The notes below the pieces were generated by a model. That model ran no database searches. It was not told where the DNA came from and saw only the letters and a list, made by a program, of their open reading frames with translations. DNA of 64,000 nt from an uncultured Flavobacteriaceae bacterium (GTDB taxonomy: Bacteria > Bacteroidota > Bacteroidia > Flavobacteriales > Flavobacteriaceae): positions 151,381 through 215,380 of the forward strand of contig CANMXP010000007.1 in assembly GCA_947501845.1 (NCBI GenBank). The letters run 5' to 3'. Made by a program: the position numbers and the translations under genes. Positions 35,296 through 51,080 of the stretch are shown piece after piece; the stretch's first letter is position 1; every line of letters begins with the position of its first letter.

Positions 35296-36357
35296 TCAAC
35301 ATATTTGACTGTAAAATAGACTTCTTAATTCCACAAGAAGTCTATTTATCTTTTCAAGATCAGGTCTGTTTTGTAAACTAGAATCAGCATACCGTTTTAC
35401 TAACTCTTTTTTCCGCTCTTCAGCCCAAAACACCAACTCATCATATTCATATTTACCTTGCTTGACATCTAGCAGAAAAGCTCTATCAGGACGCATAACA
35501 TGAATAATCTTTTCGAAGGCAATTTCCTTAGCCATATGCAATAGTCTAAACGTATGCATCATATTTTTAGAATCGTAATTTTTACCGTGAGACACAGTTG
35601 TTTTATAACGTTCTTCATTGCGCTTGCCTACCCAATCCCAATATTCTTTATACTTTTTACAATATGTTGAATATCCATCTTTGTTAAAGAAAAGCATTCC
35701 TATTGCTATTTCTCCTTTAGGAATAGAACTTAGTGCAATATCATTGGCTATTTCACTTTTTATAATGCCTTTATAAGGAATCTCTAAGCTATGATATAGA
35801 TTATTGCAATCTTTAAGATGTGAAATATTTGCTATACCGCAATTTTCTTGTTTTATCTTTTTAGCATCTAAAAATGTTTTTAAAGACATTGTTTTGCCTT
35901 TTTCATATACCAAACAAAAATCTAAAACCGACTTACGTTCTTTTTCAACAGGATTCACAATTTTCTTTTCCAAACCTCTTGCTTTTTTAATTTGAGCATA
36001 GGCATAGTTAGCAAATGACTTTTCACATTGTTTAGACAAAAAATACTCGAGCTTTATCTCATCAAATATAGGATGCTTGTAAAGCACACATTCTTCAGGT
36101 ACATTTAATAACTCTAGGATATTAGGGTTGTTTTTTGAGCAGAGTTCTATAAATTTTCGTAGCTCATAATAGACAATATCATTCGTTTCATTGTTTATTT
36201 GACCAATATAATCAAGCGAATAAAAGCTTTCTTTAGGAAGAACGAACACACCTCTTATATCAGTATCTGATGTAGGTGTGTCCAATCCATAAGCTCTACT
36301 CCCACTTATACATTCAAAAATGATATGCCCCGAAGCTTTTAATTCTTCTAGTGTCAT
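35296..36357 (-). CDS. Pol-beta-superfamily nucleotidyltransferase (RlaP-like, 'RNA-ligase-associated' NTase family)
   Basis: GSRAYGLDTPTSDTDIRGVF (GS…D.D NTase motif). 353 aa. Confidence 0.65.
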   Translation of the reverse strand: MTLEELKASGHIIFECISGSRAYGLDTPTSDTDIRGVFVLPKESFYSLDYIGQINNETNDIVYYELRKFIELCSKNNPNILELLNVPEECVLYKHPIFDEIKLEYFLSKQCEKSFANYAYAQIKKARGLEKKIVNPVEKERKSVLDFCLVYEKGKTMSLKTFLDAKKIKQENCGIANISHLKDCNNLYHSLEIPYKGIIKSEIANDIALSSIPKGEIAIGMLFFNKDGYSTYCKKYKEYWDWVGKRNEERYKTTVSHGKNYDSKNMMHTFRLLHMAKEIAFEKIIHVMRPDRAFLLDVKQGKYEYDELVFWAEERKKELVKRYADSSLQNRPDLEKINRLLVELRSLFYSQIC

Positions 36358-37103
36358 TATATTATCGTTTTTAAAAACAACTCGTTAAAGTCATCTGGAT
36401 TAGATTTTTTATTAACTAATTTATTTTTAATTCTATTGTTTTCGTTTACTATATCTCTTACTAAATGTATTAAATCCACTTCTACAGGATCATTACTTTT
36501 CTCTATACGCTCACTCTTTAACGCAATAAGTGCATCTAATTTGGAATGATAACTTGTATCTATTAATGAATACATCTCTCTAAACAACACTGGTGGAATA
36601 GTTTCATTTTTATAAATCCAGTTTGCACAAAGTGCTGTGCGTATTGCATAGAAGAAACTTTTTAATGTCATCTTCTCTGAACCTAATGTCTCTTCAAAAT
36701 TTTTATTCATACTATGAAAATGATAAAACCCAGAAACTGGATTAAAGTTAGCATTGGCTACTTTCTTTATCTCATTTAAGAAATCATTATTTGCACGATA
36801 TACAATTGGTGAAAATAACCATCCTGTAAAAGATGCATTTGACTTTGCTAATAATCGTAATGCCTTTCGGATATCCCAACCAGAACCATCCAAATCATCT
36901 TCCGTCATAAACTGTATCGTATCTGCTTGTTCCCAAAGGTTTAAATACCAATCTTTAGAATGTTTGTACACAAAGCGTATATCATAATCAGAATCTGGAG
37001 ACGCAAAGCCCCAGGCTCTACTTCCCGATTCTACTGCGAACAAGATTTCTATATTTTTATCCTGTTCTATTTGTCTTAATTTGTCTAATATTTTCGCTTT
37101 CAT
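36357..37103 (-). CDS. Pol-beta-superfamily nucleotidyltransferase (RlaP-like), paralogue of the downstream gene
   Basis: GSRAWGFASPDSDYDIRFVY. 248 aa. 1-nt overlap with the next NTase gene. Confidence 0.65.
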   Translation of the reverse strand: MKAKILDKLRQIEQDKNIEILFAVESGSRAWGFASPDSDYDIRFVYKHSKDWYLNLWEQADTIQFMTEDDLDGSGWDIRKALRLLAKSNASFTGWLFSPIVYRANNDFLNEIKKVANANFNPVSGFYHFHSMNKNFEETLGSEKMTLKSFFYAIRTALCANWIYKNETIPPVLFREMYSLIDTSYHSKLDALIALKSERIEKSNDPVEVDLIHLVRDIVNENNRIKNKLVNKKSNPDDFNELFLKTII

Positions 37104-37139
37104 AATTTTACTAATTTATACTTCAAAAGTAAAATCATG

Positions 37140-37160
37140 GTACGCAGTTATTCTGCGTAG
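37140..37160. promoter_or_regulatory. Palindrome gtacgcag-ttatt-ctgcgtag upstream of the NTase operon. Divergent relative of the ...ttttgcgtagt... element seen at 40301, 44511, 49358
   Basis: Read directly. Confidence 0.35.
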
Positions 37161-37241
37161 TGAATATTATTTGTTATATTACCTTTAAATACGCTCCTTA
37201 ATAAAACAAAAATGCGTCAACCTAAATCAACGCATTTCCTA

Positions 37242-38342
37242 TTACTTATTCACTGAGAAAATGTCCTTTAACTGCTCAATAACGTTACCGTTACCAGCAA
37301 CAGTAATCTCACCAATTTTATCAGCAATTTTCTCTACGTATTCCATCTCTTTTAATTTAAACAACATACTGTTGTCTTCCATTAATTTTGCAGTATTTAA
37401 CAAGCTTCGTGTAGACGCAGTTTCTTCTCGTCTTGTTACCACATTTGCTTGCGCTTTTTTGTGAGCAATCAATACTTGGTTCATGATATCTTTCATATCA
37501 CCTGGTAAGATCACATCTCTAATACCAGTATGTAATACGTTTACACCCAATTTACCAGCTTGTGCTTTTACATCGTTTAAAACAGCTTGAGCAATAGTTT
37601 CTTTTTGCTCTAACAATTCATCTAATGTATAAGTACCAACAAAGGCTCTCAATGCTAATTGTAAGACAATATATAATTGCTTTTCGTAATCTTTATTGTG
37701 CATTAATGCAGTCTCAATGTTTGCGACTTTATATTGCGCATAAAAGTTAATACGAACTGTTGCCTTATCTTTAGTTAACAATTCTTGACCAGCAACTTCT
37801 AATTGTAACTGACGTAAATCGGCTTTTGCTATTTTAATCGTTTGGTCATTTCTCCAGAAGTGGTATGTACCATGTTCTAAAGTTTTTACAAACTTATCGT
37901 TTACAATCATAACCGCTTTTTCGTAAGCAGCTACTTCAAATACTCTGATGTATCTGCTTAATTCTGGCTTATTGTAGATTGCTTTTTCGATAGCTTCTGT
38001 AATCTCGATTTTGCTTAAATCTGCAGTTACAAATTTATAGTCAATCAAGCTATTCCAGTACGTGTAACGTCCTGCAGCTAATACCTGCTTAAAGTTACCG
38101 TTTTCGTATACCAAAACAATCTCATTATCCTTAACCTCAACTACGGTTAACATATCTGCCAAAGCTTGATCTTTAAGTAAGATCTCTAATGCTTTTGGCG
38201 CGTTAAATGGCTGAGACAAGCTATATTTTACAACTTTCGCTCTAAAGCCTATCCAATGCTTACCCTCGGTAATAACACGTGTGTAATTACCATTTTTAAA
38301 CACTAAACCTACCATACCTGCATGAATTCTTACTCTTTTCAT
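37242..38342 (-). CDS. SPFH/band-7 (stomatin/prohibitin-like) protein
   Basis: 366 aa. SPFH core (…ATVRINFYAQYKV…DELLEQKETIAQAV…) plus C-terminal coiled-coil (…HKKAQANVVTRREETASTRSLLNTAKLMEDN…). Confidence 0.75.
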   Translation of the reverse strand: MKRVRIHAGMVGLVFKNGNYTRVITEGKHWIGFRAKVVKYSLSQPFNAPKALEILLKDQALADMLTVVEVKDNEIVLVYENGNFKQVLAAGRYTYWNSLIDYKFVTADLSKIEITEAIEKAIYNKPELSRYIRVFEVAAYEKAVMIVNDKFVKTLEHGTYHFWRNDQTIKIAKADLRQLQLEVAGQELLTKDKATVRINFYAQYKVANIETALMHNKDYEKQLYIVLQLALRAFVGTYTLDELLEQKETIAQAVLNDVKAQAGKLGVNVLHTGIRDVILPGDMKDIMNQVLIAHKKAQANVVTRREETASTRSLLNTAKLMEDNSMLFKLKEMEYVEKIADKIGEITVAGNGNVIEQLKDIFSVNK

Positions 38343-38740
38343 GATTTCTAATTTTTTTGTTCTGATGTTTTTGTTTTTTTGTCAGAACGGTTAAACATTT
38401 ATAATAGAACCTCTTATTTAAAGGTAGCTATTCATTTGTAAAACAAAGCGAAGGAAAACCATCTTTCTAACTACGGAAACACAACCAATTTAAAGTGTTT
38501 TTAAGTATTGTTTCTTAGAAGATTAATCAATTAAGACATGCAAAAATTCACAATATCTTTTTTTGAAAAATGAGTCTTTAAAAGAACACTCAAAACATCT
38601 AAAAATGCGAGTGCATTTCAAGGTGTTGCCTGGACTGCTTAAACAACAAGTTGTTTTCGCGAGCTTTAATTCACTTTGTTTTTGTCGTTTAGAGTGAGAC
38701 ACACTTGAGACCTATTTTTAAAAGTTGGCCTTCTTTTCTA

Positions 38741-38805
38741 AAAATGGATAAAAGTCCACATCCTACATTATGAGTGTAGTGCTCTACCTACTGAGCTATG
38801 TAACC
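38741..38805 (-). ncRNA. tRNA-like element: intact tRNA-Met(CAU)-type 5' two-thirds (acceptor 5' strand, D-arm, anticodon arm CUACA-CUCAUAA-UGUAG) but degenerate T-arm and no matching acceptor 3' strand
   Basis: Reverse complement reads GGTTACATAGCTCAGTAGGTAGAGCACTACACTCATAATGTAGGATGTGGAC... Confidence 0.35.
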
Positions 38806-38810
38806 TAAAA

Positions 38811-38877
38811 TGGTGGTCACAACAGGATTCGAACCTGTGCAAAAATCTATTGCTCTAACCGCTGAGCTACTTCCCCA
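38811..38877 (-). ncRNA. tRNA-like element lacking an anticodon arm: acceptor-5'/D-arm (GGGGAAGTAGCTCAGCGGTTAGAGC) joined by 14 nt to a T-arm (CAGGTTCGAATCCTG), ending in genomically encoded ACCA. Candidate tRNA mimic (Y-RNA/YrlA-like)
   Basis: Reverse complement of 38811-38877. The complementary CTTCCCC lies 20 nt upstream in the transcript (38894-38900), adjacent to another T-arm. Confidence 0.35.
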
Positions 38878-40300
38878 TGTTTTCCGATATAATTAGAGGG
38901 GAAGATGGGAGTCGAACCCATGACACATAGATGTCGGTTATTGTTTAACCAAATAACCAGTTGGTACCAAGCCAAGTTGAACATAAAAACCTCATACGAA
39001 ACCGTAAGGATTTATACAATAGTGCTATATCGAAACACGTAACAAGACTTACTTGATATTTTTTCTGTAAAAACAGATATTTTGTACCTCTTACCAGATT
39101 CGAACTGGCACTTTCAGATTCCTCTGAACAGATAGGCTCTAAATGCGCTTCCCTACTTTACATCCTGCGTATTTCGGTGCTTCTGCAAAACCTAGTCATT
39201 GGCGGGCGCACCACCAACCACATCATCCTATCACTCCACGGTTACGTTAATCTTTTTCCGCAGCTCTTCCCTTTAAGCTAAAGAGGTATTTTATATTTAA
39301 AAAAAGCGTTCTGAGAATACCTTCGCTTATAGACAAGCTTTCCTAGTATTATAGCCGTAGCCTTTCTCTAGTTTTCCACATACTTCTCATTGCTTAGAGA
39401 AATATGTACTTGTCTGATGCCTAATTACATTACAGCTGTTCAGCGACTTAGACTTGGCTTGCATAGTGGTTATTTACCACGCTTTGCAACTACAAGGGTT
39501 GGCTCCCTCACCATTAGTAGGCGTCCTCTATTTGAGGCGGCCTATTAGAATGTTCACTACACAGTAAAGGCTTGCGACCTCTACCGTCCCATATATTGCA
39601 ATGGGTTTAGGCAACTACTAGCTGCTGTAATGTTCGAAGTCTTTTGCGATTTGCTCACCGACTGAGCTATCCTTAAATTGGTTTATAGGATGGGACTTGA
39701 ACCCAAATAGTTTTTCGACCTAGGAAAAGGGCTTCGAAAATGGCTTCGTAGATTTTTGCCCACAAAATACCAACCTTTTCCTTGTGTGCCTCCCAACACA
39801 CGACATTTTAAGTTACCGAACAATTTCTCATCGGGTCACTCTAATATTGCAATACGCTCCGCTAGGCTGGATAACCTAAACGTAACCCATTACTACAACT
39901 TTCCCTGTTGATGTCTCCATCGCAAGCCTAATTCCTGTTGGCTATAAGCTCTTATTTACTTTAGCGGTTGCCCCTAGCAAATAATAACTTATGTGAGTTG
40001 CTTGCTTACCTGTACTGCCTTCTAATGAAAGTAGTCTCCACTTGCTGTGTCCGCAAATAGATTTATCCTTGTTGCCAAGTTTATCTAAGGACGATAAGCC
40101 GCCCCATCACTCAATAACCGAGATTAAAGAATGATGATTTTTTATACTAATGAAACTAATATTTAGCTTCAATTTATGTCAATGAACATTTTTTATTAAG
40201 CTCTGCCAGTTTCTAACGTCTGGCAGAGCGCTACTTTTAAAAAGTCTAATTCCAAAAGACTTTTTAGATTCCCAATTTCTCGGGAATGACAGCTACCTGT

Positions 40301-40356
40301 CAATTACTCTGCAAATATTTTGTGATATTGCGCAATGATTTTGCGTAGTTAAAAAT
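40301..40356. promoter_or_regulatory. Copy of a shared ~55-bp cis-element (ctctgcaaatatttt-N5-attgcgcaat-N-attttgcgtagtt-aaaa) immediately upstream (minus orientation) of the ncRNA region
   Basis: Near-identical copy at 44511-44565. Related copy at 49358-49415. Confidence 0.5.
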
Positions 40357-40868
40357 TATTTTAATTTTCTAAATGTTAAACTCATTCTTCCGTTTTCAGT
40401 ATTTGATTTTGTTATAGCATGTTGCCACTCGTTTTGAATCTCATTAGCCATATAAATTAATGAACCAGAAACAAGATTAAAGTCAACAATTATCTCTCGA
40501 TTTTTAACATTTCTAAATCGAAGTGTTCTAGTCTCACCCACAGAAATAATCACTACACCTGTATCATTTTCTAGAATGTCTATTTGATCAGAATGAAATC
40601 CCATTGATGAGTTTCCATCTTCATAATAGTTTATCAAACAATTATTAGGTCTAAAACCAAGAGTACTATTAATGGATTCAATAATGTCTTTTAAGTCAGA
40701 TGTAAAAGGCTGAAAAGGATATTCCATTTGAGAATAATCATAAGCCCTTCCAAAACTAGCTGTTTTCCTTGCCGACATTCTTTCATCCCAAATAATATTA
40801 TTTTTTAATATTTCAAACAATGACTCATGATTATCTAAAAAGTTTTCTCTATAAATAATTCCTTCCAT
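40356..40868 (-). CDS. alkB: AlkB-family Fe(II)/2-oxoglutarate-dependent dioxygenase (nucleic-acid demethylase)
   Basis: 170 aa. HxD (MGFHSDQ), distal His (EWQHAI) and RxSxTFR (RMSLTFR) signature. Confidence 0.72.
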   Translation of the reverse strand: MEGIIYRENFLDNHESLFEILKNNIIWDERMSARKTASFGRAYDYSQMEYPFQPFTSDLKDIIESINSTLGFRPNNCLINYYEDGNSSMGFHSDQIDILENDTGVVIISVGETRTLRFRNVKNREIIVDFNLVSGSLIYMANEIQNEWQHAITKSNTENGRMSLTFRKLK

Positions 40869-40971: not shown

Positions 40972-41466
40972 GTGAAGTACTTTACACCACCTTATCTGCA
41001 CAAGACGAACTTGCAAAGGCATAAGGTTTAGCTTTAAAGACAAACCCCATTCCTAATATATAGCCCATAGCATCCTTAAGCGCCACATTAGACTGAAACT
41101 TAGGGTCAGTATTAATATCTGCGTGTACCTCTAATTCAACATTATATTTGTCTAGTATATCACAGATAGTAATGCTACTTCAACAGACATTGTTACCTCT
41201 TTAAGCATTCGCTCTTTAATACCAATGTGTTTTGTGCCTTTATAATTTGTCATAAACATAAAACCACCTTTACCTTCTCGAAGTACTACAATGACAGTTG
41301 CATACTCTACGTGAGATTTATAGGCTTGAGAATCCGAACCCACACAAACCTTAAGACGATGTCCTGCTTTTTGCTCTCTTATAATGGCATTTTCTATGAT
41401 ATCTGTAATAGGCAGATCAAACACTTTACCACTAAAGTTTCTCCATTTTTGTTGTGCAATTTTCAT
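40972..41466 (-). pseudogene. DUF458/YkuK-family (RNase-H-like fold) gene interrupted by a single frameshift
   Basis: ORF 41152-41466 (…KVCVGSDSQ…VIVVLREGKGGFMF…VEVALLSVIY*) continues in another frame as CDILDKYNVELEVHADINTDPKFQSNVALKDAMGYILGMGFVFKAKPYAFASSSCADKVV* ending at 40972. Both halves match the YkuK pattern (GTDSQ…GKGG…HxDhxxD…KPxAFA). Confidence 0.5.
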
Positions 41467-41500
41467 GATTACTCATTTTTTTAGTTAAACATTTATATTG

Positions 41501-41573
41501 TGGAACAAACTGGACTCGAACCAGTATCTTCGGAGCTTCAATCCGACGCATAGACCTGTTTTGCTATTGTTCC
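41501..41573 (-). tRNA. tRNA-Phe (GAA)
   Basis: Manual fold of the reverse complement GGAACAATAGCAAAACAGGTCTATGCGTCGGATTGAAGCTCCGAAGATACTGGTTCGAGTCCAGTTTGTTCCA. Perfect 7-bp acceptor, anticodon loop UUGAAGC, T-loop TTCGAGT. CCA not encoded. Confidence 0.8.
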
Positions 41574-41578
41574 TTTTT

Positions 41579-41651
41579 GGGTGACTTTGGGATTCGAACC
41601 CTATTTTCCTCATTCACAGTGAGGTGTTTTACCACATAAACTAAAGCCACC
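41579..41651 (-). tRNA. tRNA-His (GUG)
   Basis: Anticodon arm CCUCA-CUGUGAA-UGAGG. Discriminator C. T-arm AGGGTTCGAATCCCA. Confidence 0.75.
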
Positions 41652-41659
41652 ATAGCCTG

Positions 41660-41730
41660 TTAATCCGATAGGACTCGAACCTATACCTCAGGAGTCAAAT
41701 TCCTGTATGCTGCCTTTACATCACGGATTA
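41660..41730 (-). tRNA. tRNA-Gln (UUG)
   Basis: Acceptor TAATCCG/CGGATTA. Anticodon arm CAGGA-AUUUGAC-UCCUG. T-arm ATAGGTTCGAGTCCTAT. Confidence 0.7.
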
Positions 41731-41735
41731 ATTTG

Positions 41736-41860
41736 TAGGTCTAATAGGATTTGAACCCATACCACAAGGGTCGAAATATTATATATTCACGAATTCCTAT
41801 TTAATGAAATGGTTATACAATGAGCTAAACCTTGTATGCTATCCGTTACACCATAGACCT
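41736..41860 (-). tRNA. Atypical ~125-nt tRNA-like gene: canonical acceptor (AGGTCTA/TAGACCT), D-arm and T-arm, UAG at the anticodon position, but a ~53-nt AT-rich insertion inside/after the anticodon loop (enclosed by helix CAAGG…CCTTG)
   Basis: Manual fold. Paralogous to 42420-42541, including the insertion. Confidence 0.45.
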
Positions 41861-41866
41861 ATTTTG

Positions 41867-41940
41867 TACTCCCCCTTGGATTCGAACCAAGACTTAACAG
41901 GGCTTAAACCTGATGCCTCTTCCATTTGGGCTAGTGGAGC
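41867..41940 (-). tRNA. 74-nt class-I (short variable arm) tRNA-like gene with anticodon UAA (Leu-type anticodon on a non-Leu-type body), discriminator A
   Basis: Anticodon arm (U)CAGG-UUUAAGC-CCUG(U). Acceptor GCTCCAC/GGGGAGT with one mismatch. Confidence 0.5.
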
Positions 41941-41945
41941 AATTG

Positions 41946-42019
41946 TACAGGGAAAGAGACTCGAACTCTCAAATTTCAGATTCTAAATCTGACGCCTATA
42001 CCTATTCGGCTACCCCTGC
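41946..42019 (-). tRNA. 74-nt class-I tRNA-like gene with anticodon UAG (Leu-type anticodon, short variable arm), discriminator A
   Basis: Anticodon arm UCAGA-UUUAGAA-UCUGA perfect. Acceptor GCAGGGG/TCCCTGT with two G·U. Confidence 0.5.
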
Positions 42020-42024
42020 ATGTG

Positions 42025-42098
42025 TTGAGATGTCAGAATTCGAACCTGAACCCTTCGCCTTATGAGAGCGATGCTCTACCAAATTAAGCTACATCTCA
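42025..42098 (-). tRNA. tRNA with CAU anticodon (elongator Met or lysidine-Ile2 type; U1-A72)
   Basis: TGAGATG-TAGCTTAATTTGGTAGAGCA-TCGCT-CTCATAA-GGCGA…CATCTCA-A. Confidence 0.75.
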
Positions 42099-42108
42099 CT
42101 ATGCCTTG

Positions 42109-42181
42109 TTGAGATATTAGGACTTGAACCTAAACCTATCATCGTATCAGGATGATGCTCTACCAATTAAGCTATATCTCA
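42109..42181 (-). tRNA. tRNA-Ile (GAU)
   Basis: TGAGATA…TCATC-CTGATAC-GATGA…TATCTCA-A. Confidence 0.78.
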
Positions 42182-42186
42182 ATATG

Positions 42187-42258
42187 TTGAGGCAATAGGA
42201 TTCGAACCTATGACTTTCACGATGTAAGCGTGACGCTCTTCCTCTGAGCTATACCTCA
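42187..42258 (-). tRNA. tRNA-Val (UAC)
   Basis: TGAGGTA…TCACG-CTTACAT-CGTGA…TGCCTCA-A. Confidence 0.75.
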
Positions 42259-42263
42259 ATTTG

Positions 42264-42335
42264 TACTCCGTAAGGGAATTGAACCCTTAATTCCACATAG
42301 AAAGTGTGGCGTCTTAGCCATTTGACCAACGGAGC
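42264..42335 (-). tRNA. tRNA-Glu (UUC)
   Basis: GCTCCGT…CCACA-CTTTCTA-TGTGG…ACGGAGT-A. Confidence 0.7.
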
Positions 42336-42340
42336 TATTG

Positions 42341-42412
42341 CGGTTCATACGAGAATCGAACTCGTATCTCCCGAGAGACAGTCGGGAAGGATAACCATTA
42401 CCCCAATGAACC
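42341..42412 (-). tRNA. tRNA-Asp (GUC), discriminator G
   Basis: GGTTCAT…CCCGA-CTGTCTC-TCGGG…ATGAACC-G. Confidence 0.75.
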
Positions 42413-42419
42413 AATTTTG

Positions 42420-42541
42420 TACATCTACTAAGATTCGAACTTAGACTTAGAGATTAGAAATGCTATGCATTCACAAACACCTTCATTTAAAATAAAATGA
42501 GTGAGCTAAATCTCTTGTGCTATCCCTTACACCATAGATGC
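42420..42541 (-). tRNA. Atypical ~122-nt tRNA-like gene, paralogue of 41736-41860: acceptor GCATCTA/TAGATGT, D-arm TGGTGTAAGGGATAGCA, loop start TTTAGCTCA (UAG), ~50-nt insertion closed by helix AGAGA…TCTCT, normal T-arm
   Basis: Manual fold. The insertions of the two paralogues align (…TTAAAT…GTGAAT…ATTTC…). Confidence 0.45.
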
Positions 42542-42547
42542 ATGTTG

Positions 42548-42630
42548 TGGAAGTGGTAGGACTCGAACCTACAAACTCATAAGAGACCAGATTTACAGTC
42601 TGGCGAGCCAACCAATTGCTCAACACTTCC
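42548..42630 (-). tRNA. tRNA-Tyr (GUA), class II with long variable arm
   Basis: GGAAGTG…CCAGA-CTGTAAA-TCTGG + 13-nt variable arm + GTAGGTTCGAGTCCTAC + CACTTCC-A. Confidence 0.78.
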
Positions 42631-42638
42631 TTTATTTG

Positions 42639-42711
42639 AGACAAGGATGAGATTCGAACTCATAAATAACGGATTTGCAATCAGACGCCTTAGCCATTCA
42701 GCCACCTTGTC
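42639..42711 (-). tRNA. tRNA-Cys (GCA)-like, discriminator U. The anticodon stem has two mismatches relative to a canonical Cys tRNA (UCUGA…UCCGU), so possibly a weakened/pseudo tRNA
   Basis: GACAAGG…TCTGA-TTGCAAA-TCCGT…CCTTGTC-T. Confidence 0.5.
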
Positions 42712-42715
42712 TTAG

Positions 42716-42787
42716 CTATATTGGAAGGATTCGAACCTACAACTTCAGACTTAACAGGTCTTTGCTCTACCTTTGAGCTACAATATC
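42716..42787 (-). tRNA. tRNA-Asn (GUU), discriminator G
   Basis: Anticodon loop CUGUUAA. T-arm GTAGGTTCGAATCCTTC. One G1·A72 mismatch in the acceptor. Confidence 0.65.
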
Positions 42788-42792
42788 ATTTG

Positions 42793-42880
42793 CGGAGAGT
42801 AGAGGAATCGAACCTCCACCGCCTCTGGTGCGGCCTTGTTTAGCAGACAAGTGCAACAAACCAATATTTGCCTACTCTCC
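42793..42880 (-). tRNA. tRNA-Ser (GCU), class II, discriminator G
   Basis: GGAGAGT…CTTGT-CTGCTAA-ACAAG + 16-nt variable stem-loop + GGAGGTTCGATTCCTCT + ACTCTCC-G. Confidence 0.78.
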
Positions 42881-42894
42881 ATTAATTACTTTCG

Positions 42895-42967
42895 TCTGAG
42901 AGACAGGATTCGAACCTGCAACCTCTCGCTTCCAAAGCGAGTAAACCAACCATCGTTATCCTCTCAG
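42895..42967 (-). tRNA. tRNA-Pro (UGG), C1-G72, discriminator A, G at position 8
   Basis: CTGAGAG…CTCGC-TTTGGAA-GCGAG…CTCTCAG-A. Confidence 0.65.
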
Positions 42968-42972
42968 TTTTG

Positions 42973-43115
42973 CGGAAGGAGTGGGAGTCGAACCCACACG
43001 AGTCATTAACTCCGAACACTTTTAACTCAAAGATTTCTATTCTGATAAACAGGATTCGTTGAATTCGTAAACACATTTCAAGAGTGTGGCCACCACTAAT
43101 TTGGCTTGTCCTTCC
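42973..43115 (-). tRNA. Atypical ~143-nt tRNA-like gene: acceptor GGAAGGA/TCCTTCC, discriminator G, apparent anticodon arm ACACU-CUUGAAA-UGUGU (UGA, Ser-type), T-arm GTGGGTTCGACTCCCAC, but ~75 nt between the anticodon stem and the T-stem (Ser variable arm plus ~55-nt AT-rich insertion)
   Basis: Manual fold of the reverse complement. Confidence 0.4.
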
Positions 43116-43121
43116 GTTTTG

Positions 43122-43194
43122 TTGACGCGGTGGGTCTCGAACCCACGACCTCGGCGTTAAAAGCACCTTGCTCTGCCAACTGAGCTACGCGTCA
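43122..43194 (-). tRNA. tRNA-Lys (UUU), discriminator A
   Basis: TGACGCG-TAGCTCAGTTGGCAGAGCA-AGGTG-CTTTTAA-CGCCG…GTGGGTTCGAGACCCAC-CGCGTCA-A. Confidence 0.75.
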
Positions 43195-43379: not shown

Positions 43380-43670
43380 TCTAAATAGTTTGTCATTTGT
43401 TTTTTAATTATTTCGACGGTGCAAATATGAAATGTATTTTTGAATTACACAAGAAAAATATCAATTTAATTTACTGACAATCAATTAGTTATGTTAGGTT
43501 TAGAAAATAGAGTCCCTGTCCGTTTTTTACGGATAATCGTTAATTTTCACAATAGTCAGTCTCCCTGTTGTTTATCAATTATTTGCTATTTTTTATACTT
43601 GCTTAACTTTTCATTTTATTTTTAAAAAAATTCATAAAAAAAGCGTCCAATTTTCATTGGACGCTCGATA
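43380..43670. repeat. Copy A of a ~270-bp intergenic module also present at 47470-47725. Ends in the hairpin aaaaaaagcgtccaat-tttc-attggacgct
   Basis: Aligned blocks, e.g. aattacacaagaaaaatatcaatttaatttactgacaatcaattagtta vs aattacgcaagaaaaaaaataatttaatttactaaaaatcaaatagtta. Confidence 0.55.
43634..43665 (-). terminator. 10-bp stem hairpin followed (on the minus strand) by a U-tract. Intrinsic terminator downstream of the HEPN-like gene and upstream of the tRNA array
   Basis: agcgtccaat/attggacgct with tttc loop. A8 tract on the plus strand. Confidence 0.6.
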
Positions 43671-43853: not shown

Positions 43854-44492
43854 TTATTTTTCAGTTGGTTTATAATCATCGGGATATGGAAATGAGTCTG
43901 TCAAGCTTCTCATTATAATTAAAAAATTTTTTAGTTCGACAAAAAACTCATCGAAGTCTCCAATATCTCTATTTTTATATGCGTGTATTGCATTTCGCCT
44001 TTGTTGAATTTTTAAAATCCAATCAATTATATCCAACCTTCCTTCTTCTTTCCAAATTTCTCTTATTTTTTTTGGATAAATTTCTTTAGCAAAAAATACT
44101 CTTAACTTTTCTAATATTAATATATCTGGTTCAATTAATCCCCCGTGTTTATCTCTGTATCCTCTTAATGTCGATTTTAAGGCACTTTCTTCATAACTAC
44201 TGTGCCATACAGAAAGGAATAATTTTAACACTCCTTCGGTCAAACTACCCAAAGTTGTCCACGCAAGTATTAAACCACCATCCTCCTTTTTTATGTCGTC
44301 AGTATTAAAAACACGCAGAACTCTAGCTAATGACGCTTGCCAATCTAATCTTGATTTAGCCATTAAGTCAGCTACTTTTATGGGTGCCCATCCATTAGAA
44401 CTACTCCAAAAATCAGCAAGTCCTTCTGTCAATTTTATTATTCTTTCTATAACCTCTTCATTAGAATAAGCTAAAGGTTCATTCTCCTCCAT
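43854..44492 (-). CDS. Hypothetical protein with a C-terminal HEPN-like Rx4H motif (…QQRRNAIHAY…). Candidate HEPN RNase/RNA-binding domain
   Basis: 212 aa. Motif seen by eye. No other recognisable domain. Confidence 0.35.
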   Translation of the reverse strand: MEENEPLAYSNEEVIERIIKLTEGLADFWSSSNGWAPIKVADLMAKSRLDWQASLARVLRVFNTDDIKKEDGGLILAWTTLGSLTEGVLKLFLSVWHSSYEESALKSTLRGYRDKHGGLIEPDILILEKLRVFFAKEIYPKKIREIWKEEGRLDIIDWILKIQQRRNAIHAYKNRDIGDFDEFFVELKNFLIIMRSLTDSFPYPDDYKPTEK

Positions 44493-44510
44493 AATGTTTA
44501 TTTAAATTAA

Positions 44511-44565
44511 TTACTCTGCAAATATTTTACACTATTGCGCAATATTTTTGCGTAGTAAAAATCAT
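44511..44565. promoter_or_regulatory. Copy of the shared ~55-bp cis-element (ctctgcaaatatttt-N5-attgcgcaat-atttttgcgtagt-aaaa) directly upstream of the HEPN-like gene
   Basis: ~90% identical to 40301-40356. Confidence 0.5.
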
Positions 44566-45101
44566 TTCCTTTTCTTCTTTGATTTTTTAGATGATTTCTT
44601 CTTTTTATCCAATTTCATCTTCTTTTCTATACGCCTTTGTTCATCTACCATAAAATCATAATAATGATCATTATAGCAGTGCCTTTTTGCTTCTTTTAAG
44701 TATTTTAAGCAGGTTTTGTATTTTCCTTGCGTTTCCTCTATATAAGAAGACAACCAATTTATTTCGGCTTTACTTATCGTTTCTATAGTTTGTGAAAAGT
44801 CTACTAGTTTTTTTGCTCTATCTATCTTGTTATTCCAAATTAGGTATTTGATGTACATTGGATAAACATCTTCGTAACTGGTATCTATAGCAATAACTTT
44901 ATCAAAACATTCAAATGCTTTCTCTGGCATCGATAAATATTTTGCATAGATTTCTCCTAATAAGCAAAGTGACGCACAGTGGTTTTCATCGTACGAAAGT
45001 GCATAGTTTAAAGATTCACAAACTTCTTCCCAGTCACTACAAAAACCACTTGTTGCAGCTTTTGCTTTTAAATAATAACTGTCTGCTAATGTTAATCCCA
45101 T
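44562..45101 (-). CDS. TPR-like helical-repeat protein with lysine-rich C-terminal tail
   Basis: 179 aa. Tail [17 protein letters not shown]. Overlaps prfH by 10 nt (operon). Confidence 0.35.
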
Positions 45102-45787
45102 TTTTGTTGTCTTAAATTATTCTTTAATTCTTGTCGTTTAGACTTGTAATTTTTATTTATTTTTTGTGTTTTAAAATCAGTTCCAATAAAAACACGTACT
45201 GGATTCCCTCTTTCTAAATTGAGGTGGTTTCCCCATTGGTTCTGAACTGATTTTTTTAATTGCTCATTATTATATTCAGCTACTTTTTCTTGTAACCGTT
45301 TTATAGCTATCTTTTTATTTTGGTGCTGAGACCTGCTGTCCATTACCAAAACCTGTATGCCTGTTTTTGTATGTGTTGCTCTAATGGCTGAGCTTACTTT
45401 ATTAACATGTTGTCCTCCTGGCCCTGAACTTCTAATAGCTTGAAATTTTATATCGCTATCTATTAAAAGAGTCCCTTTCTCAGCTTCAATTTCATAAATA
45501 CCAACAAACCAATTTTTTCGCTTACGAAATTTTCTGAAAGATGATTTTCCTATCCATTGTACTGTCCCCAACCAATTGCTTAAAAAAGACTCCAACGCTT
45601 TTCCTTGTAATTGAATAGTTGCAGATTGTAACGTTCCGTTTTCTGTACCAGATTCTCTTTGTAATAGCGTATATTCTATTTTCGCTTTTTTTATCTCTTC
45701 AATGAAATACTTTAAAACTTGAGCTACAACCCAGCAACATTCAATAGGTCCTCTTCCTGATGTTATTTGTATTGTTTTTGTTTTCAT
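45092..45787 (-). CDS. prfH: PrfH (peptide-chain-release-factor homologue H), the partner of RtcB2 in ribosome/rRNA-repair modules
   Basis: 231 aa. GGQ motif [15 protein letters not shown]. Short RF-like architecture lacking a codon-recognition domain. Start overlaps the rtcB stop. Confidence 0.8.
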
Positions 45788-47178
45788 TATTTATCCATTC
45801 TAACAATTTTTGGTGTAAATGTTCCTAACACTTCTACCAATTCTTGTTGATTATTCATTACTTTTTTAATGTTCTTATAAGCCATTGGTGCTTCATCTAC
45901 GCCACCACCAATAAGCGTAACATCATGCATTTTTAATTGCTGCTTTATATCACTTTTTGTGAATTTCTCTTTGCACTTTCTTCGTGAATGCAAACGTCCT
46001 GCTCCATGAGATGCCGAGTTTAAGCTTTCACTATTACCCAAGCCTTGTACTATATATCCAGGAGCAGTCATCGATCCTGGGATAATACCCAACTCGCCTT
46101 TATTGGCTGGTGTTGCTCCTTTACGATGTACAATACATTCTTTATCGTTTACCATTTCTTTCCAAGCAAAATTGTGGTGATTTTCAATCTTAACTACAGC
46201 TTTAGAACCCAGTAACTTTCCTATGCGATAATGAATGTCGTCATGACATGCCTTAGCGTAATCACCAGCTAGATTCATAGCTAGCCAATATTCTTGACCA
46301 TCATGCGTATTTAAATCCAGCCATGCTAAATGCTGAACATTTTTAGGTAATGGGCATTGTTTACTAGCTAAATAGGTATAATGTTTTGCAATGTTAGCTC
46401 CTAATCCTCTTGAGCCACTATGTGACAATACACCTATGTAATCACCAGCTTTAAGCTGCCATTGATTATCCTCATCCGTTATAGAAACCACTCCAAACTC
46501 CACAAAATGATTGCCTCCTCCCGATGTTCCCAATTGCTTAAATGCTTTTATCTTTAACCGTTTTAGTAAAGGAATATCGTCAAACTCAGCTCTTGCAAAA
46601 ATCTCATGGTCGTGTTTTTTATCATGTGTTTCATACATCCCAAATTTGGTGTGATTTGATAAAATATTCTCCAACTGATGTTGCTTCCCCTTTAAATAAG
46701 AAGCTTTCATTGGGTAAATGGTTAAACACATTCTACACCCAATATCTACCCCAACACCATAAGGAATTACTGCATTATCAGTTGCTAAAACAGCGCCTAT
46801 TGGCAACCCATAACCTGAATGTGCATCTGGCATTAAAGCTCCTGATACAGCTATTGGTAATTTTAAGGCATCGTATAATTGGTACTTTGCTTGTTCATCA
46901 ATCTCGTTTTCACCATAAATATTAAAAGGCACTCTTGTATTTTTAAGTTGATGAAATTTAACCTCAACTGGCTTTACCAAACCTTCAACTACTTTTCCCC
47001 AAATGGCATTACCTTGAAATTTTTCTGGGTTTTGTAATACGGCTTTCGCTTCTTCCAAAATGCGTTCTTTTTTTTCTCTTTTTCGGTATCTGTTTATTTG
47101 CCCTAAAGCAATATTGATACTATTATTTTTTGGGAACCCCAATTTTATTAGGTCTTTCCCTTTTAGTTTATTTCCCAT
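45787..47178 (-). CDS. rtcB: RtcB-family RNA 3'-phosphate/5'-OH ligase (RtcB2-type, paired with PrfH)
   Basis: 463 aa. [33 protein letters not shown] catalytic motifs. Confidence 0.85.
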
Positions 47179-47469: not shown

Positions 47470-47725
47470 ACAATTCAAAATTAATAATTTGTTTTGCTTT
47501 ATTGCGATGCAAAGATGATATGCATTTTTTAATTACGCAAGAAAAAAAATAATTTAATTTACTAAAAATCAAATAGTTAACTTGATTTTAAACAATAGAA
47601 TTTCTGTCCGCATTATGCAGATATTGCAATTAATTGATAAACGGATATTTAGCTTTAAACTCACATGTTGCCAAATCGGAAAAAAATTATAAAAAAAAGC
47701 GTCCAATTTCTTGGACGCCTTTTAG
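47470..47725. repeat. Copy B of the ~270-bp intergenic module (see 43380-43670). Ends in the hairpin aaaaaaaagcgtccaa-tttc-ttggacgc
   Basis: Alignment with copy A. Confidence 0.55.
47691..47722 (-). terminator. Hairpin + U-tract terminator (minus strand) downstream of the second RtcB gene
   Basis: gcgtccaa/ttggacgc stem, A8 tract on plus. Confidence 0.6.
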
Positions 47726-47888: not shown

Positions 47889-49274
<1,386 letters not shown>

Positions 49275-49357
49275 TTATTTTTCTTTAAGCTCCGTTAGCT
49301 TCCTCGTCTAACGGAGCTCTACTTTAAAGTCTATCTAAAGACTTATTCATGATTCCG

Positions 49358-49415
49358 AGACAAATATTTTAAGTAACTGCGCAATTATTTTGCACAGTTA
49401 ATTAATTTTTACAAT
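49358..49415. promoter_or_regulatory. Third copy of the shared cis-element (caaatatttt-aagta-actgcgcaat-tattttgcacagtt-aattaa), ~90 bp upstream of the divergent rtcB
   Basis: Alignment with 40301-40356 and 44511-44565. Confidence 0.45.
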
Positions 49416-49469: not shown

Positions 49470-51080
49470 ATGAACATTAAAATTGCATCTGTACTGTATT
49501 TATTTGGCTTAACATTACAATTATTTTCTCAAGAAACACCTAAAAACTGGCATCTATTAGATGAAAAAGAAGACAATATCCCTGGAATTAGTCTTGAAAA
49601 AGCTTATAACCTGTTGAAAGAGCATAATAAAAAGTCATCACCAGTAATAGTTGCTGTTTTAGACTCTGGCTTAGATATCAATCATGAAGATATTAATCCC
49701 ATTTTATGGGTCAATCCCAAAGAAATTGAAGGCAATAATTTAGATGATGATGGCAATGGTTATATTGACGACGTTCATGGTTGGAATTTTATTGGTGGCC
49801 CAAACGGACAAAATATAGAAGCCGAAACTTTAGAACTAACAAGATTCTACAAAAAATTCAAAGAACAATTTAAAGGGAAAAACAAATTTAATATTGCTCC
49901 TGAAGAAAAAGAAGATTATGAAAAGTTCCTCATATATATGAAAGCATACAATGAAGGAAAAAGCAAATTAAAATCCTCTATAAAAAATAACACAGAAGAA
50001 TTTACGTTTTTTGACAAGCTAATACCTCCACTACAAGAAGCAGTTGGAAAAAACTCATTTACCGAAAAAGAACTTAAAAAAGCGAAGCTTAAAGGCCAAA
50101 AACTTGAAAACTTAAGAGCTAAGTTTTTTAGAATTTTAGAGCGAAACAAAGAAAAGGACCTTACCTCAGTAAAATTAATCAAACATTACGAAGACCTTTC
50201 ATCTCAAATGGAATCTTTAAACACCAGATTAGAATATAACTATAGTTTAGATTTTGACGGCAGAGCCATTATTGGTGATGATTATAGTAACTTAAATGAA
50301 AAAATTTATGGTAACAATGATGTTTCTAAAAGGGCTGAACACGGTACCCACGTTTCTGGCATTATAGGCGCTGTTAGACATAACAATATTGGCATTAACG
50401 GTATTGCAGATAATGTCATTATAATGCCCATTCGAAACACACCTATGGGAGATGAAGCCGATAAAGATGTCGCTAATGGTATCCGTTATGCTGTTGATAA
50501 TGGTGCTAAAATTATTAATATGAGCTTTGGAAAAGATTTTTCTCCCCAAAAAGAAGCTGTTGATGAAGCGGTTAAATATGCACAAGAAAAAGGCGTGCTC
50601 CTGGTACATGCAGCAGGAAATGATAATAAAAACACAGACTATTTTTACAATTATCCTAGTGCCTTATTAAAAGACGGTTCAGTTGCTGATAATTGGATTG
50701 AAGTGGGAGCCAGCTCTTTTAATTTGAATGAAAAACTACCAGCTACATTCTCCAATTATGGTAATGTATCTGTTGATATTTTTGCGCCAGGGGTCGATAT
50801 CTATGCCACTTTGCCCAATAACGCTTATGATACTAGAAGCGGAACTAGCATGGCAGCCCCTGTAGTTTCTGGTATTGCAGCCTTGCTATTTTCATATTTC
50901 CCACATTTAACACCCGAACAAGTCATATCAATCATCACTGAATCTGGCATTACTTATAACATAGATGTTAACCAACCTGGTTCAGAAAATAAAGTACCAT
51001 TTTCTTCTTTATCAAAAACTGGCAAGATTATAAATGCTTATTCTGCGGTCAAACTAGCTTTAAAGAACTATGACAACTAA
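49470..51080 (+). CDS. Secreted subtilisin-like serine protease (peptidase S8)
   Basis: Signal peptide. Catalytic triad motifs VAVLDSGLD (Asp), HGTHVSGIIG (His), GTSMAAPVVSG (Ser). Confidence 0.85.
   Translation: MNIKIASVLYLFGLTLQLFSQETPKNWHLLDEKEDNIPGISLEKAYNLLKEHNKKSSPVIVAVLDSGLDINHEDINPILWVNPKEIEGNNLDDDGNGYIDDVHGWNFIGGPNGQNIEAETLELTRFYKKFKEQFKGKNKFNIAPEEKEDYEKFLIYMKAYNEGKSKLKSSIKNNTEEFTFFDKLIPPLQEAVGKNSFTEKELKKAKLKGQKLENLRAKFFRILERNKEKDLTSVKLIKHYEDLSSQMESLNTRLEYNYSLDFDGRAIIGDDYSNLNEKIYGNNDVSKRAEHGTHVSGIIGAVRHNNIGINGIADNVIIMPIRNTPMGDEADKDVANGIRYAVDNGAKIINMSFGKDFSPQKEAVDEAVKYAQEKGVLLVHAAGNDNKNTDYFYNYPSALLKDGSVADNWIEVGASSFNLNEKLPATFSNYGNVSVDIFAPGVDIYATLPNNAYDTRSGTSMAAPVVSGIAALLFSYFPHLTPEQVISIITESGITYNIDVNQPGSENKVPFSSLSKTGKIINAYSAVKLALKNYDN

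Follow-up and report, generated by a model that had tools for sequence, protein, structure and literature searches.

A palindromic promoter module linked to RNA-repair genes across the Bacteroidota, with a WYL-domain protein as its candidate regulator

The RNA-repair island and its repeated element

Here we describe an RNA-repair island from an uncultured Flavobacteriaceae bacterium, contained in a window of 64,000 nucleotides (the whole stretch of DNA that was analysed, whose numbering is used throughout). All genes of the island lie on the minus strand, and their coordinates are collected in Table 1 together with those of the control elements discussed below. Most of the encoded proteins could be assigned by domain searches. 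No informative Pfam or NCBIfam match was obtained for the TPR-like 179-aa protein, and the 212-aa protein had no match in either collection; an exact-sequence look-up of the latter returned nothing on record, and a UniRef homologue with 70% identity is named 'RiboL-PSP-HEPN domain-containing protein'.

Table 1. Features of the island and its surroundings, in order of descending position
Feature	Position	Strand	Basis or remark
Candidate regulator, wHTH-3HB-WYL-WCX transcription factor, 338 aa	51113..52129	plus	Pfam WYL, WCX
S8 subtilase gene	49470-51080	plus	just beyond rtcB1; WYL gene 33 bp further on
Operator O1 CTGTGCAAAATAATTGCGCAG	49377..49397	minus	upstream of rtcB1; pattern and dyad scans
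Putative -7 box AATATTTG of P1	49361..49368	minus	TTTG 13 nt past dyad
Two-hairpin 5' leader RNA	49286..49355	minus	between P1 and rtcB1 start codon
rtcB1, RNA ligase, P1 cargo	47889..49271	minus	Pfam RtcB
Terminator-like hairpin after rtcB1	47694-47723		terminator scan
119-nt module, copy before rtcB2-prfH leader	47505-47623		repeat finder
rtcB2	45787-47178	minus	
prfH	45092-45787	minus	TIGR03072 equivalog, 234 bits
TPR-like 179-aa gene	44562-45101	minus	
Operator O2 CTACGCAAAAATATTGCGCAA	44535..44555	minus	upstream of 212-aa gene
Putative -7 box AATATTTG of P2	44519..44526	minus	TTTG register
212-aa gene, P2 cargo	43854..44492	minus	UniRef homologue name
Terminator-like hairpin after 212-aa gene	43641-43666		terminator scan
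119-nt module, copy before tRNA-array unit	43417-43535		repeat finder
16 tRNA genes	41500-43194	minus	
RNaseH-like gene	41152-41466	minus	
AlkB-like dioxygenase	40356-40868	minus	
Operator O3 CTACGCAAAATCATTGCGCAA	40328..40348	minus	immediately past AlkB-like gene stop codon
Putative -7 box AATATTTG of P3	40312..40319	minus	TTTG register
Structured leader of P3 transcript	40200..40303	minus	two hairpins shared with rtcB1 leader
~2 kb non-coding RNA	38343-40300	minus	
GOLLD-like giant RNA, P3 cargo	39305..39782	minus	Rfam RF02032
tRNA-like and YrlA (Y RNA)-like elements, P3 cargo	38745..38929	minus	Rfam scan
SPFH/Band-7 gene, final P3 cargo	37242..38342	minus	Pfam
Terminator-like hairpin after SPFH	37208-37239		terminator scan
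Operator O4 CTACGCAGAATAACTGCGTAC	37140..37160	minus	upstream of RlaP pair
Putative -7 box TACTTTTG of P4, perfect TAnnTTTG	37124..37131	minus	TTTG register
Two RlaP nucleotidyltransferase genes, P4 cargo	35296..37103	minus	Pfam RlaP

The island contains a family of ~55-bp repeats, and a repeat finder run on the 64-kb window grouped all four copies together. With the copy at 40302-40354 as reference, identity is 87% for 44509-44561, 70% for 49351-49403 and 64% for 37114-37166. A degenerate pattern, ACTRYGCARAATNNYTGCG, was derived from the minus-strand alignment of the copies and applied to the 64 kb with at most two mismatches. It matched each of the four copies on the minus strand and, in addition, gave one reverse match that overlaps, where 0.05 matches are expected by chance. 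The dyad TRCGCA-N7-TGCGYA, applied with at most one mismatch, recovered the identical four sites and none besides (0.09 expected by chance; none of 100 shuffles reached four). All four copies lie inside the island in a single orientation, each at the head of a unit. The first-pass annotation of this DNA had proposed a shared operator/promoter before four island units, and four sites on one strand against 0.05-0.09 expected bear this out. Its placement of every copy 10-100 bp upstream of a unit needs amendment: for three copies the first downstream start codon is 40-109 bp away, and the 40.3-kb copy precedes ~2 kb of non-coding RNA genes.

A further module reported by the repeat finder is 119 nt long, with 77% identity between its two copies, and carries a canonical TTG-N20-nAnnTTTG promoter (at ~43.44 kb and 47.52 kb) and no operator. 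The copy at 43.4 kb stands before a terminated RNA of ~190 nt, behind which the tRNA array lies, and the copy at 47.5 kb stands before the leader of rtcB2-prfH. Because these two units have an operator-less promoter of their own, the operator, as far as can be read from the DNA, heads four units (P1 with rtcB1, P2 with the 212-aa gene, P3 with the non-coding RNAs and SPFH, and P4 with the RlaP pair) and not the whole island. The earlier proposal that one regulator coordinates the entire island is therefore narrowed: a single regulator very probably acts on all four operator units, and the rtcB2-prfH and tRNA-array units would fall outside its reach. The 212-aa (HEPN-like) gene, which had been thought to read into the tRNA array, probably does not, given the terminator-like hairpin behind it and the separate promoter before the array unit.

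Unit P3 contains structured RNAs. In an Rfam scan run at an E-value threshold, the GOLLD model RF02032 was matched over its full length with 133.1 bits (E=2e-36; gathering score 150), and the match aligns the conserved blocks as well as the embedded tRNA-like insert. A locus of Winogradskyella sp. (L121) is homologous to P3 over the entire region, including GOLLD, which scores 134.1 bits there. More than 20 loci share a YrlA/tRNA-like non-coding core placed between the operator and SPFH. GOLLD was not found in eight further loci that run from an operator to SPFH, which hold tRNAs and YrlA-like matches only. GOLLD RNAs have been described from phages and from tRNA arrays (PMC12286853). Furthermore, the P1 and P3 transcripts start with a conserved two-hairpin leader, which also opens transcripts of several other Flavobacteriaceae; its second hairpin shows compensatory double changes in 7 of 10 pairs, and the leader has no match in Rfam.

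Anatomy and distribution of the operator

Read on the minus strand, each copy has the form A-CTACGCAA-AAwnA-yTGCGyA-N9/10-nAnnTTTG. The operator consensus is A-CTrCGCAAAAwnAyTGCGyA-GT, 19-21 bp in length, and the nAnnTTTG box begins 9-10 bp further downstream. The conserved dyad, CTACGCAA-N5-TTGCGYAG, is centred on the A-rich spacer and has CTACGCAA and TTGCGTAG as its half-sites. Its centre does not fall on TTGCGCAA, which the first-pass annotation had named as the palindromic core and which is the right half-site plus two bases. The symmetry axis is plainest in the orthologous sites of other genera, which read CTACGCAA-N5-TTGCGTAG, and in the 37.1-kb copy, TACGCAG-AATAA-CTGCGTA, so that the copy once described as a mere palindromic relative of the others is in fact the most symmetric operator. 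The palindrome is suited to a dimer, with TRCGCA-N7-TGCGYA present at all four window sites. Direct repeats of GCGCAAnAT were also considered as the operator core and were ruled out by the CTACGCAA-N5-TTGCGTAG layout of the orthologous sites.

The housekeeping promoter of the Bacteroidota consists of a -7 box, TAnnTTTG, and a -33 element, TTTG. All four copies carry, on the minus strand, a TTTG 13 nt past the dyad (within AATATTTG three times and TACTTTTG once), which we take to be the -7 box, going by the consensus of Bacteroides and Flavobacterium promoters. Among the sites listed across genomes (see below), this part of the canonical housekeeping promoter is present as nAnnTTTG, with the A at 82% and the TTTG invariant by selection. 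No -33 TTG is possible at the operator promoters ~19-21 nt upstream of the -7 box, a position occupied by the spacer AAAA; the operator sits where the missing -33 element would be. Taken together, the sequences argue that the repeated element is a genuine promoter module, in which a palindromic site stands at a fixed distance from a Bacteroidota promoter box.

A genome scan with the pattern CTRYGCAAAAWNAYTGCGYA, using one genome per species for 185,579 species, yielded at least 119 stretches of 8 kb with at least 130 sites. These counts are a sample and not a census; the pattern fixed most core positions, among them GCAA, and hence misses sites of the O4 type. In 114 of the 130 matches listed, the distance from the dyad to the TTTG beyond it is exactly 13 nt (80 sites) or 14 nt (34 sites), where the background for an eight-offset window is 6.5%. 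These 114 listed geometry sites are all from the Bacteroidota, and each class sampled within that phylum has the operator/-7 module (Flavobacteriia, Cytophagia, Saprospiria, Chitinophagia, Sphingobacteriia and Bacteroidia). Sites without the geometry number 16 among those listed and come mainly from outside the phylum (Acidobacteria, Ruminococcaceae, Burkholderiales, WOR-3 and others). A WYL or repair gene is close by at just one of these 16, L007, and a tRNA at one other; the group provides a negative control within the scan itself.

The genes next to the listed geometry sites resemble those of the island. At 96 of the 114, the first feature on the same strand, looking 2 kb downstream, is of a recognised island type; the dispersed REP/MITE-like repeat without promoter bias that the first-pass annotation had named as the opposing case was looked for in this way and not found. 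RtcB comes first at 27 sites, Ro60/TROVE at 20, SPFH at 16 (after a non-coding gap), a 746-aa family at 12, tRNA at 10, Hen1 at 4, RlaP at 3, a 192-aa family at 2, and ApeA-HEPN and a T4-type RNA ligase (Rnl1) at 1 each. As in this window, an operator stands directly 5' of RlaP in L047, L093 and L112. Nothing was recognised at the other 18, for 10 of which less than 2 kb of sequence was available.

Of the listed segments, 111 of 114 are distinct, and the sequence is conserved across classes while the flanks differ. Positions that the pattern left free extend the palindrome at the listed sites, with A at -1 in 74% and G/T at +1/+2 in 53%/71%, and an A/T-rich tract lies upstream of it. Under the geometry pattern, a single site is present in 88 of the 8-kb stretches, two or three in 20 and none in 16, counting the 119 stretches listed together with five further loci. 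In two Bacteroidales MAGs, TTTG is found 13-14 nt away on both sides of the palindrome, facing rtcB and the WYL gene. Among 2.9 million viral contigs scanned there were 32 matches, most of them belonging to two families of coding sequences that lack promoter geometry; only four stretches, representing three distinct sites, have that geometry, and the viral-contig scan rules out the element as a phage feature.

A WYL-domain protein as candidate regulator

The first-pass annotation had called for a nearby regulator gene and suggested an RtcR-like factor. None of the island ORFs and ten flanking ORFs scanned contains an RtcR, CARF or sigma-54 activator domain, and no -24/-12 GG accompanies the copies. 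What is linked to the operator instead is a gene for a wHTH-WYL-WCX protein, with Pfam matches to WYL (E=1.2e-10) and WCX (E=1.4e-13). Its homologues, which NCBI names 'helix-turn-helix transcriptional regulator', are 73-92% identical across the aligned Flavobacteriaceae (Winogradskyella, Tamlana, Aquimarina, Cellulophaga and Kordia among them). No HTH was found in residues 1-110 by Pfam or NCBIfam. An AlphaFold model of low confidence (pLDDT 57) has three helices and a beta-hairpin at residues 2-81, and the order suggested by it is wHTH (2-81), three-helix bundle (95-135), WYL (140-226) and WCX (256-337). Foldseek with this low-confidence model at full length gave DriD (8tp8, E=6e-9) and PafBC as the best matches, followed by BrxR and CapW. 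Sequence identity to DriD is 14-19%, and a sequence search against the PDB gave weak WCX matches only.

In this window the S8 subtilase gene separates the regulator gene from the nearest operator. Elsewhere the WYL gene and rtcB point away from each other, ~160 bp apart (Winogradskyella luteola, Aquimarina sp. AD10 and C. lytica), and the motif lies within the WYL-rtcB intergenic region in all five loci compared (L001-L005), 37-38 bp from the regulator start codon. The site orthologous to O1 is the one in this intergenic region of W. luteola, Aquimarina and Cellulophaga. Because the WYL gene is adjacent to and divergent from rtcB in these genomes, with the motif between them, the subtilase gene here is an insertion into a conserved regulator-operator-rtcB arrangement. 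Across the 114 listed geometry sites, a divergent WYL homologue is found in the same 8-kb stretch for 62 and no more than 111 bp away for 31. About half of the listed sites have no WYL gene within their 8-kb stretch, and some sites would therefore act at a distance. From this linkage we infer that the wHTH-WYL-WCX protein is the candidate regulator that would bind the operator.

Proposed mechanism, rival readings and known systems

On balance we lean towards a reading in which each copy is a composite, regulator-dependent promoter, by which the WYL protein would activate RNA-repair genes and structured RNAs jointly. A dimer of the regulator would bind the palindromic operator, and its WYL domain would sense a nucleic-acid damage signal, presumably broken RNA. 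The signal-loaded regulator would then recruit RNA polymerase to the incomplete promoters in a DriD-like manner, so that rtcB1, the putative RiboL-PSP-HEPN gene, the GOLLD-like, Y-RNA-like and tRNA-like RNAs with SPFH, and the RlaP pair would be switched on together. Activation is favoured over repression because the operator promoters have no -33 TTG, yet the operator-less promoters of the island carry one, and because the architecture, a palindrome over the absent -33 at a fixed distance from the -7 box, matches that of DriD promoters. Damaged RNA is suggested as the ligand because of the cargo found here and because of the precedent of RtcR, which senses tRNA fragments (PMC7790460).

A broader version of this proposal, which we put forward tentatively as a possibility, is an SOS-like response to RNA damage throughout the Bacteroidota. 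The WYL regulator would sense broken RNA (such as tRNA halves or 2',3'-cyclic-phosphate ends, rather than ssDNA) and would activate a modular regulon via one operator, comprising RtcB, Ro60 and Y RNAs, Hen1, RlaP, SPFH and spare tRNAs, with the giant GOLLD RNA in some genomes.

The serious alternative, in our estimate rather unlikely, is that the WYL protein acts on the identical operator as a repressor of the CapW/BrxR type, blocking RNA polymerase at the -33/spacer region until a damage signal binds. In its favour, repression is the mode of CapW and BrxR, two wHTH-WYL-WCX proteins that likewise appear among the structural matches, below DriD and PafBC (PMC11662680, PMC9122601); occlusion fits an operator that overlaps the core promoter equally well, and the analogous Anabaena regulon, with its tRNA array and rtcB, is under a repressor, TrcR (PMC10272220). 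A repressed promoter must, however, be strong unaided, and the operator promoters are without a -33 TTG at canonical spacing, whereas the operator-less promoters at 43.4 kb and 47.5 kb do have one. The strictly fixed operator-to-box distance is moreover a reported hallmark of DriD activation, and a repressor site could vary more.

Other readings take the motif away from the WYL protein or deny it a promoter role. It is improbable that an unlinked factor or an alternative sigma factor (ECF or sigma-54) reads the motif and that the WYL gene is merely a member of the regulon. The sites without a WYL gene in 8 kb, about half of those listed, would agree with another reader, and the CGCA-N7-TGCG spacing superficially resembles a two-block sigma-factor promoter. 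Nevertheless, the motif is a true palindrome, as is usual for the site of a dimeric HTH protein but not for that of a sigma factor; it is accompanied by a housekeeping-type -7 box in fixed register; and the sigma-54 signature GG-N10-GC (-24/-12) is absent from it, the positions equivalent to GG being C-G in 100% of the sites listed. A reader other than the WYL protein is also hard to square with the 31 listed sites within 111 bp of a divergent WYL start, a classic self-regulated layout, or with a half-site/spacer format that equals that of DriD. A reading of the element as a repeat of structural or selfish nature (REP/MITE-like) without promoter role, or as a hairpin terminator of the upstream gene, is largely refuted and very improbable. 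O2 and O3 do lie directly past the stop codons of upstream genes, and the terminator scan counted the palindrome of O4 among its terminator-like hits, but many sites occupy divergent intergenic regions with nothing to terminate. Against this reading stand also the four copies of single orientation in 64 kb, the context so strongly biased to RNA-repair genes, the conservation of sequence, and not of pairing alone, across the classes of the phylum between differing flanks, and the rarity of the geometry among the 2.9 million viral contigs, where only four stretches have it.

The composite promoter activated by a WYL protein, if correct, has several implications. RNA-repair operons have a characterised regulator in few lineages only, namely RtcR in Proteobacteria and TrcR in cyanobacteria; for the Bacteroidota, among whose members are gut Bacteroides and environmental Flavobacteria, there would now be a proposed operator, a promoter design and a candidate regulator, with a regulon (RtcB, Ro60/Y RNA, Hen1, RlaP, SPFH and tRNAs) that is defined by sequence. 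The reach of WYL-domain signalling would grow beyond DNA damage and phage defence to include RNA damage. In addition, a GOLLD-like RNA is placed under a defined, putatively inducible promoter, which provides an experimental handle on a function that has been open since 2009; under the SOS-like reading, GOLLD would be tied to RNA-damage and translation-stress physiology in a chromosomal, non-phage setting. The genomic evidence points to a phylum-wide RNA-repair regulon with a DriD-like promoter design that is directly testable.

In the literature searched, neither this operator nor an RNA-repair (WYL-RtcB) regulon under WYL control was found described for the Bacteroidota. A gene-neighbourhood link between WYL regulators and RNA repair had probably been noted by Burroughs and Aravind in 2016. 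That work is cited for WYL domains and 2',3'-cyclic RNA ends in PMC7824862.

In content, the nearest known counterpart is the RtcR regulon of Salmonella and E. coli (rsr-yrlBA-rtcBA), which is equivalent in placing RtcB, Ro60 and Y-RNA-like RNAs under a single regulator that responds to damage (PMC7790460). RtcR itself (CARF, AAA+ and HTH domains; sigma-54) differs, however, in that regulator, sensor domain and promoter type are all unrelated to those found here. The ribbon-helix-helix repressor TrcR of Anabaena sp. PCC 7120 acts on repeats common to the promoters of a long tRNA array, rtcB and others, including the SPFH/slipin gene alr0740, and this set is induced by translational stress (PMC8421152, PMC10272220). 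The TrcR operator consists of tandem direct repeats (TGTAGTAT-like) over the -10 box, so that sequence, symmetry and position differ from those of the present operator, and the tRNA array in this window is preceded by an operator-less promoter; we regard the relation to TrcR as one of functional analogy only. The regulators and operators of the present system, RtcR and TrcR are mutually unrelated.

In regulator and promoter design, the likeness is to the WYL family. CapW and BrxR, which belong to the same protein family, are repressors of phage-defence operons whose operators overlap promoters (PMC11662680, PMC9122601); these operators are likewise palindromic and beside the regulators' own genes, whereas the two proteins repress defence systems, respond to ssDNA and are weaker structural matches than DriD and PafBC. 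DriD of Caulobacter crescentus and PafBC, known for mycobacterial 'sigma adaptation', share the domain family of the candidate regulator and are the best structural matches to its predicted model. The DriD site, ATACGAC-N7-GTCGTAT, lies over an absent -35 at a fixed distance from the -10 element, as seen by cryo-EM (PMC13004042), and the corresponding arrangement, a site over an absent upstream element at a fixed distance from the box, is found at 114 of the 130 listed sites. Both are pseudo-palindromes with half-sites of 6-7 bp and a spacer of 7 bp, TACGCA-N7-TGCGTA in the present case. They differ in that the host here is a member of the Bacteroidota with -7/-33 promoters and that the regulon consists of RNA repair and structured RNAs instead of DNA-damage genes. 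DriD and PafBC, like CapW, sense ssDNA; the regulator described here would sense damaged RNA instead.

RNAs downstream of the predicted operator O3

Here we find a GOLLD-like giant RNA in a chromosomal RNA-repair/tRNA island, 3' of the predicted operator O3, which heads the promoter of the non-coding RNAs and the SPFH gene. A second copy lies at locus L121 (L-numbers denote loci from other genomes), and both match the Rfam model over its full length with 133-134 bits (E ~1e-36), under the gathering score of 150. The GOLLD-like RNA was found in two Winogradskyella-type genomes and was not detected in eight further operator-to-SPFH loci searched. Elements resembling YrlA (a Y RNA) and tRNAs also cluster between operator and SPFH gene, both in the window and in L016, L025, L029, L056, L120, L121 and others, with a homologous core at more than 20 loci among the matches listed. 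No Ro60 gene occurs within the 64-kb window; elsewhere Ro60 is a frequent operator cargo (gene or RNA downstream of the operator).

Coordinates of the features discussed (window unless a locus is named)
Feature	Position (strand)	Remark
YrlA-like/tRNA-like cluster	38745-39114 (-)	between operator and SPFH gene
GOLLD-like RNA	39305-39782 (-)	RF02032, full-length
GOLLD-like RNA	L121 6787-7277 (+)	RF02032, full-length
Two-hairpin 5' leader	40200-40266 (-); 49286-49355 (-)	conserved, 3' of promoter
tRNA-array gaps, ~135-150 nt	41731-41865, 42413-42546, 42968-43120 (-)	T-arm-like sequences
119-nt module	43417-43535 (-); 47505-47623 (-)	77% identical copies
212-aa gene	43854-44492 (-)	first in P2 unit
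S8 subtilase gene	49470-51080 (+)	between rtcB1 and WYL regulator gene
Two-sided palindromes	L046 635-653; L092 6398-6416	two Bacteroidales MAGs; each flanked left and right by TTTG, 13-14 nt away

Shared leader and promoter modules

The two-hairpin 5' leader recurs in L002, L004, L026, L036, L056, L066, L102 and L121 and is kept with all three kinds of cargo: rtcB, tRNAs and non-coding RNAs. GTAG follows hairpin 1 (AAGTCTT...AGACTT); hairpin 2 has a 10-bp stem, in which covariation is present, and a loop resembling ACnAGGAAG. Rfam gives no match to this leader.

Another shared cis-module, 119 nt long, has a canonical TTG-N20-nAnnTTTG promoter and no WYL operator. In one copy it lies upstream of a terminated small RNA (~190 nt) and the tRNA array; in the second, it lies upstream of the ~330-nt rtcB2-prfH leader, which includes a terminator-like hairpin and is a possible attenuator or riboswitch. 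Within the array, the T-arm-like sequences of the gaps (repeat families D3, D4, D6, D9 and D14) may represent tRNA-like genes of degenerate or unusual form; ARAGORN called no tRNA in them.

Protein cargo and the regulator gene

The 212-aa protein of the P2 unit has no match in Pfam or NCBIfam. A Chryseobacterium homologue (70% identical) is named 'RiboL-PSP-HEPN domain-containing protein' in UniRef, and homologues extend to Methanoregula and Bacillota at 46-50% identity. Uncharacterised families also recur as the operator's first cargo: a ~746-aa family with a weak Prok-RING_4 match, often preceded by a ~500-nt leader (L013, L052, L084, L122 and others), and a ~190-aa family without a Pfam match (L032, L066, L097). 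Further cargo includes Hen1, a T4-type RNA ligase and an ApeA-HEPN protein.

Whereas rtcB and the gene of the candidate WYL regulator are directly divergent in W. luteola, Aquimarina and Cellulophaga, the subtilase gene intervenes in the window. Because only 33 bp separate its stop codon from the regulator gene start, the two are probably co-transcribed. At L046 and L092, one TTTG side of the palindrome is directed towards rtcB and the other towards the WYL gene, which suggests that one predicted operator carries a bidirectional, self-regulated promoter pair.
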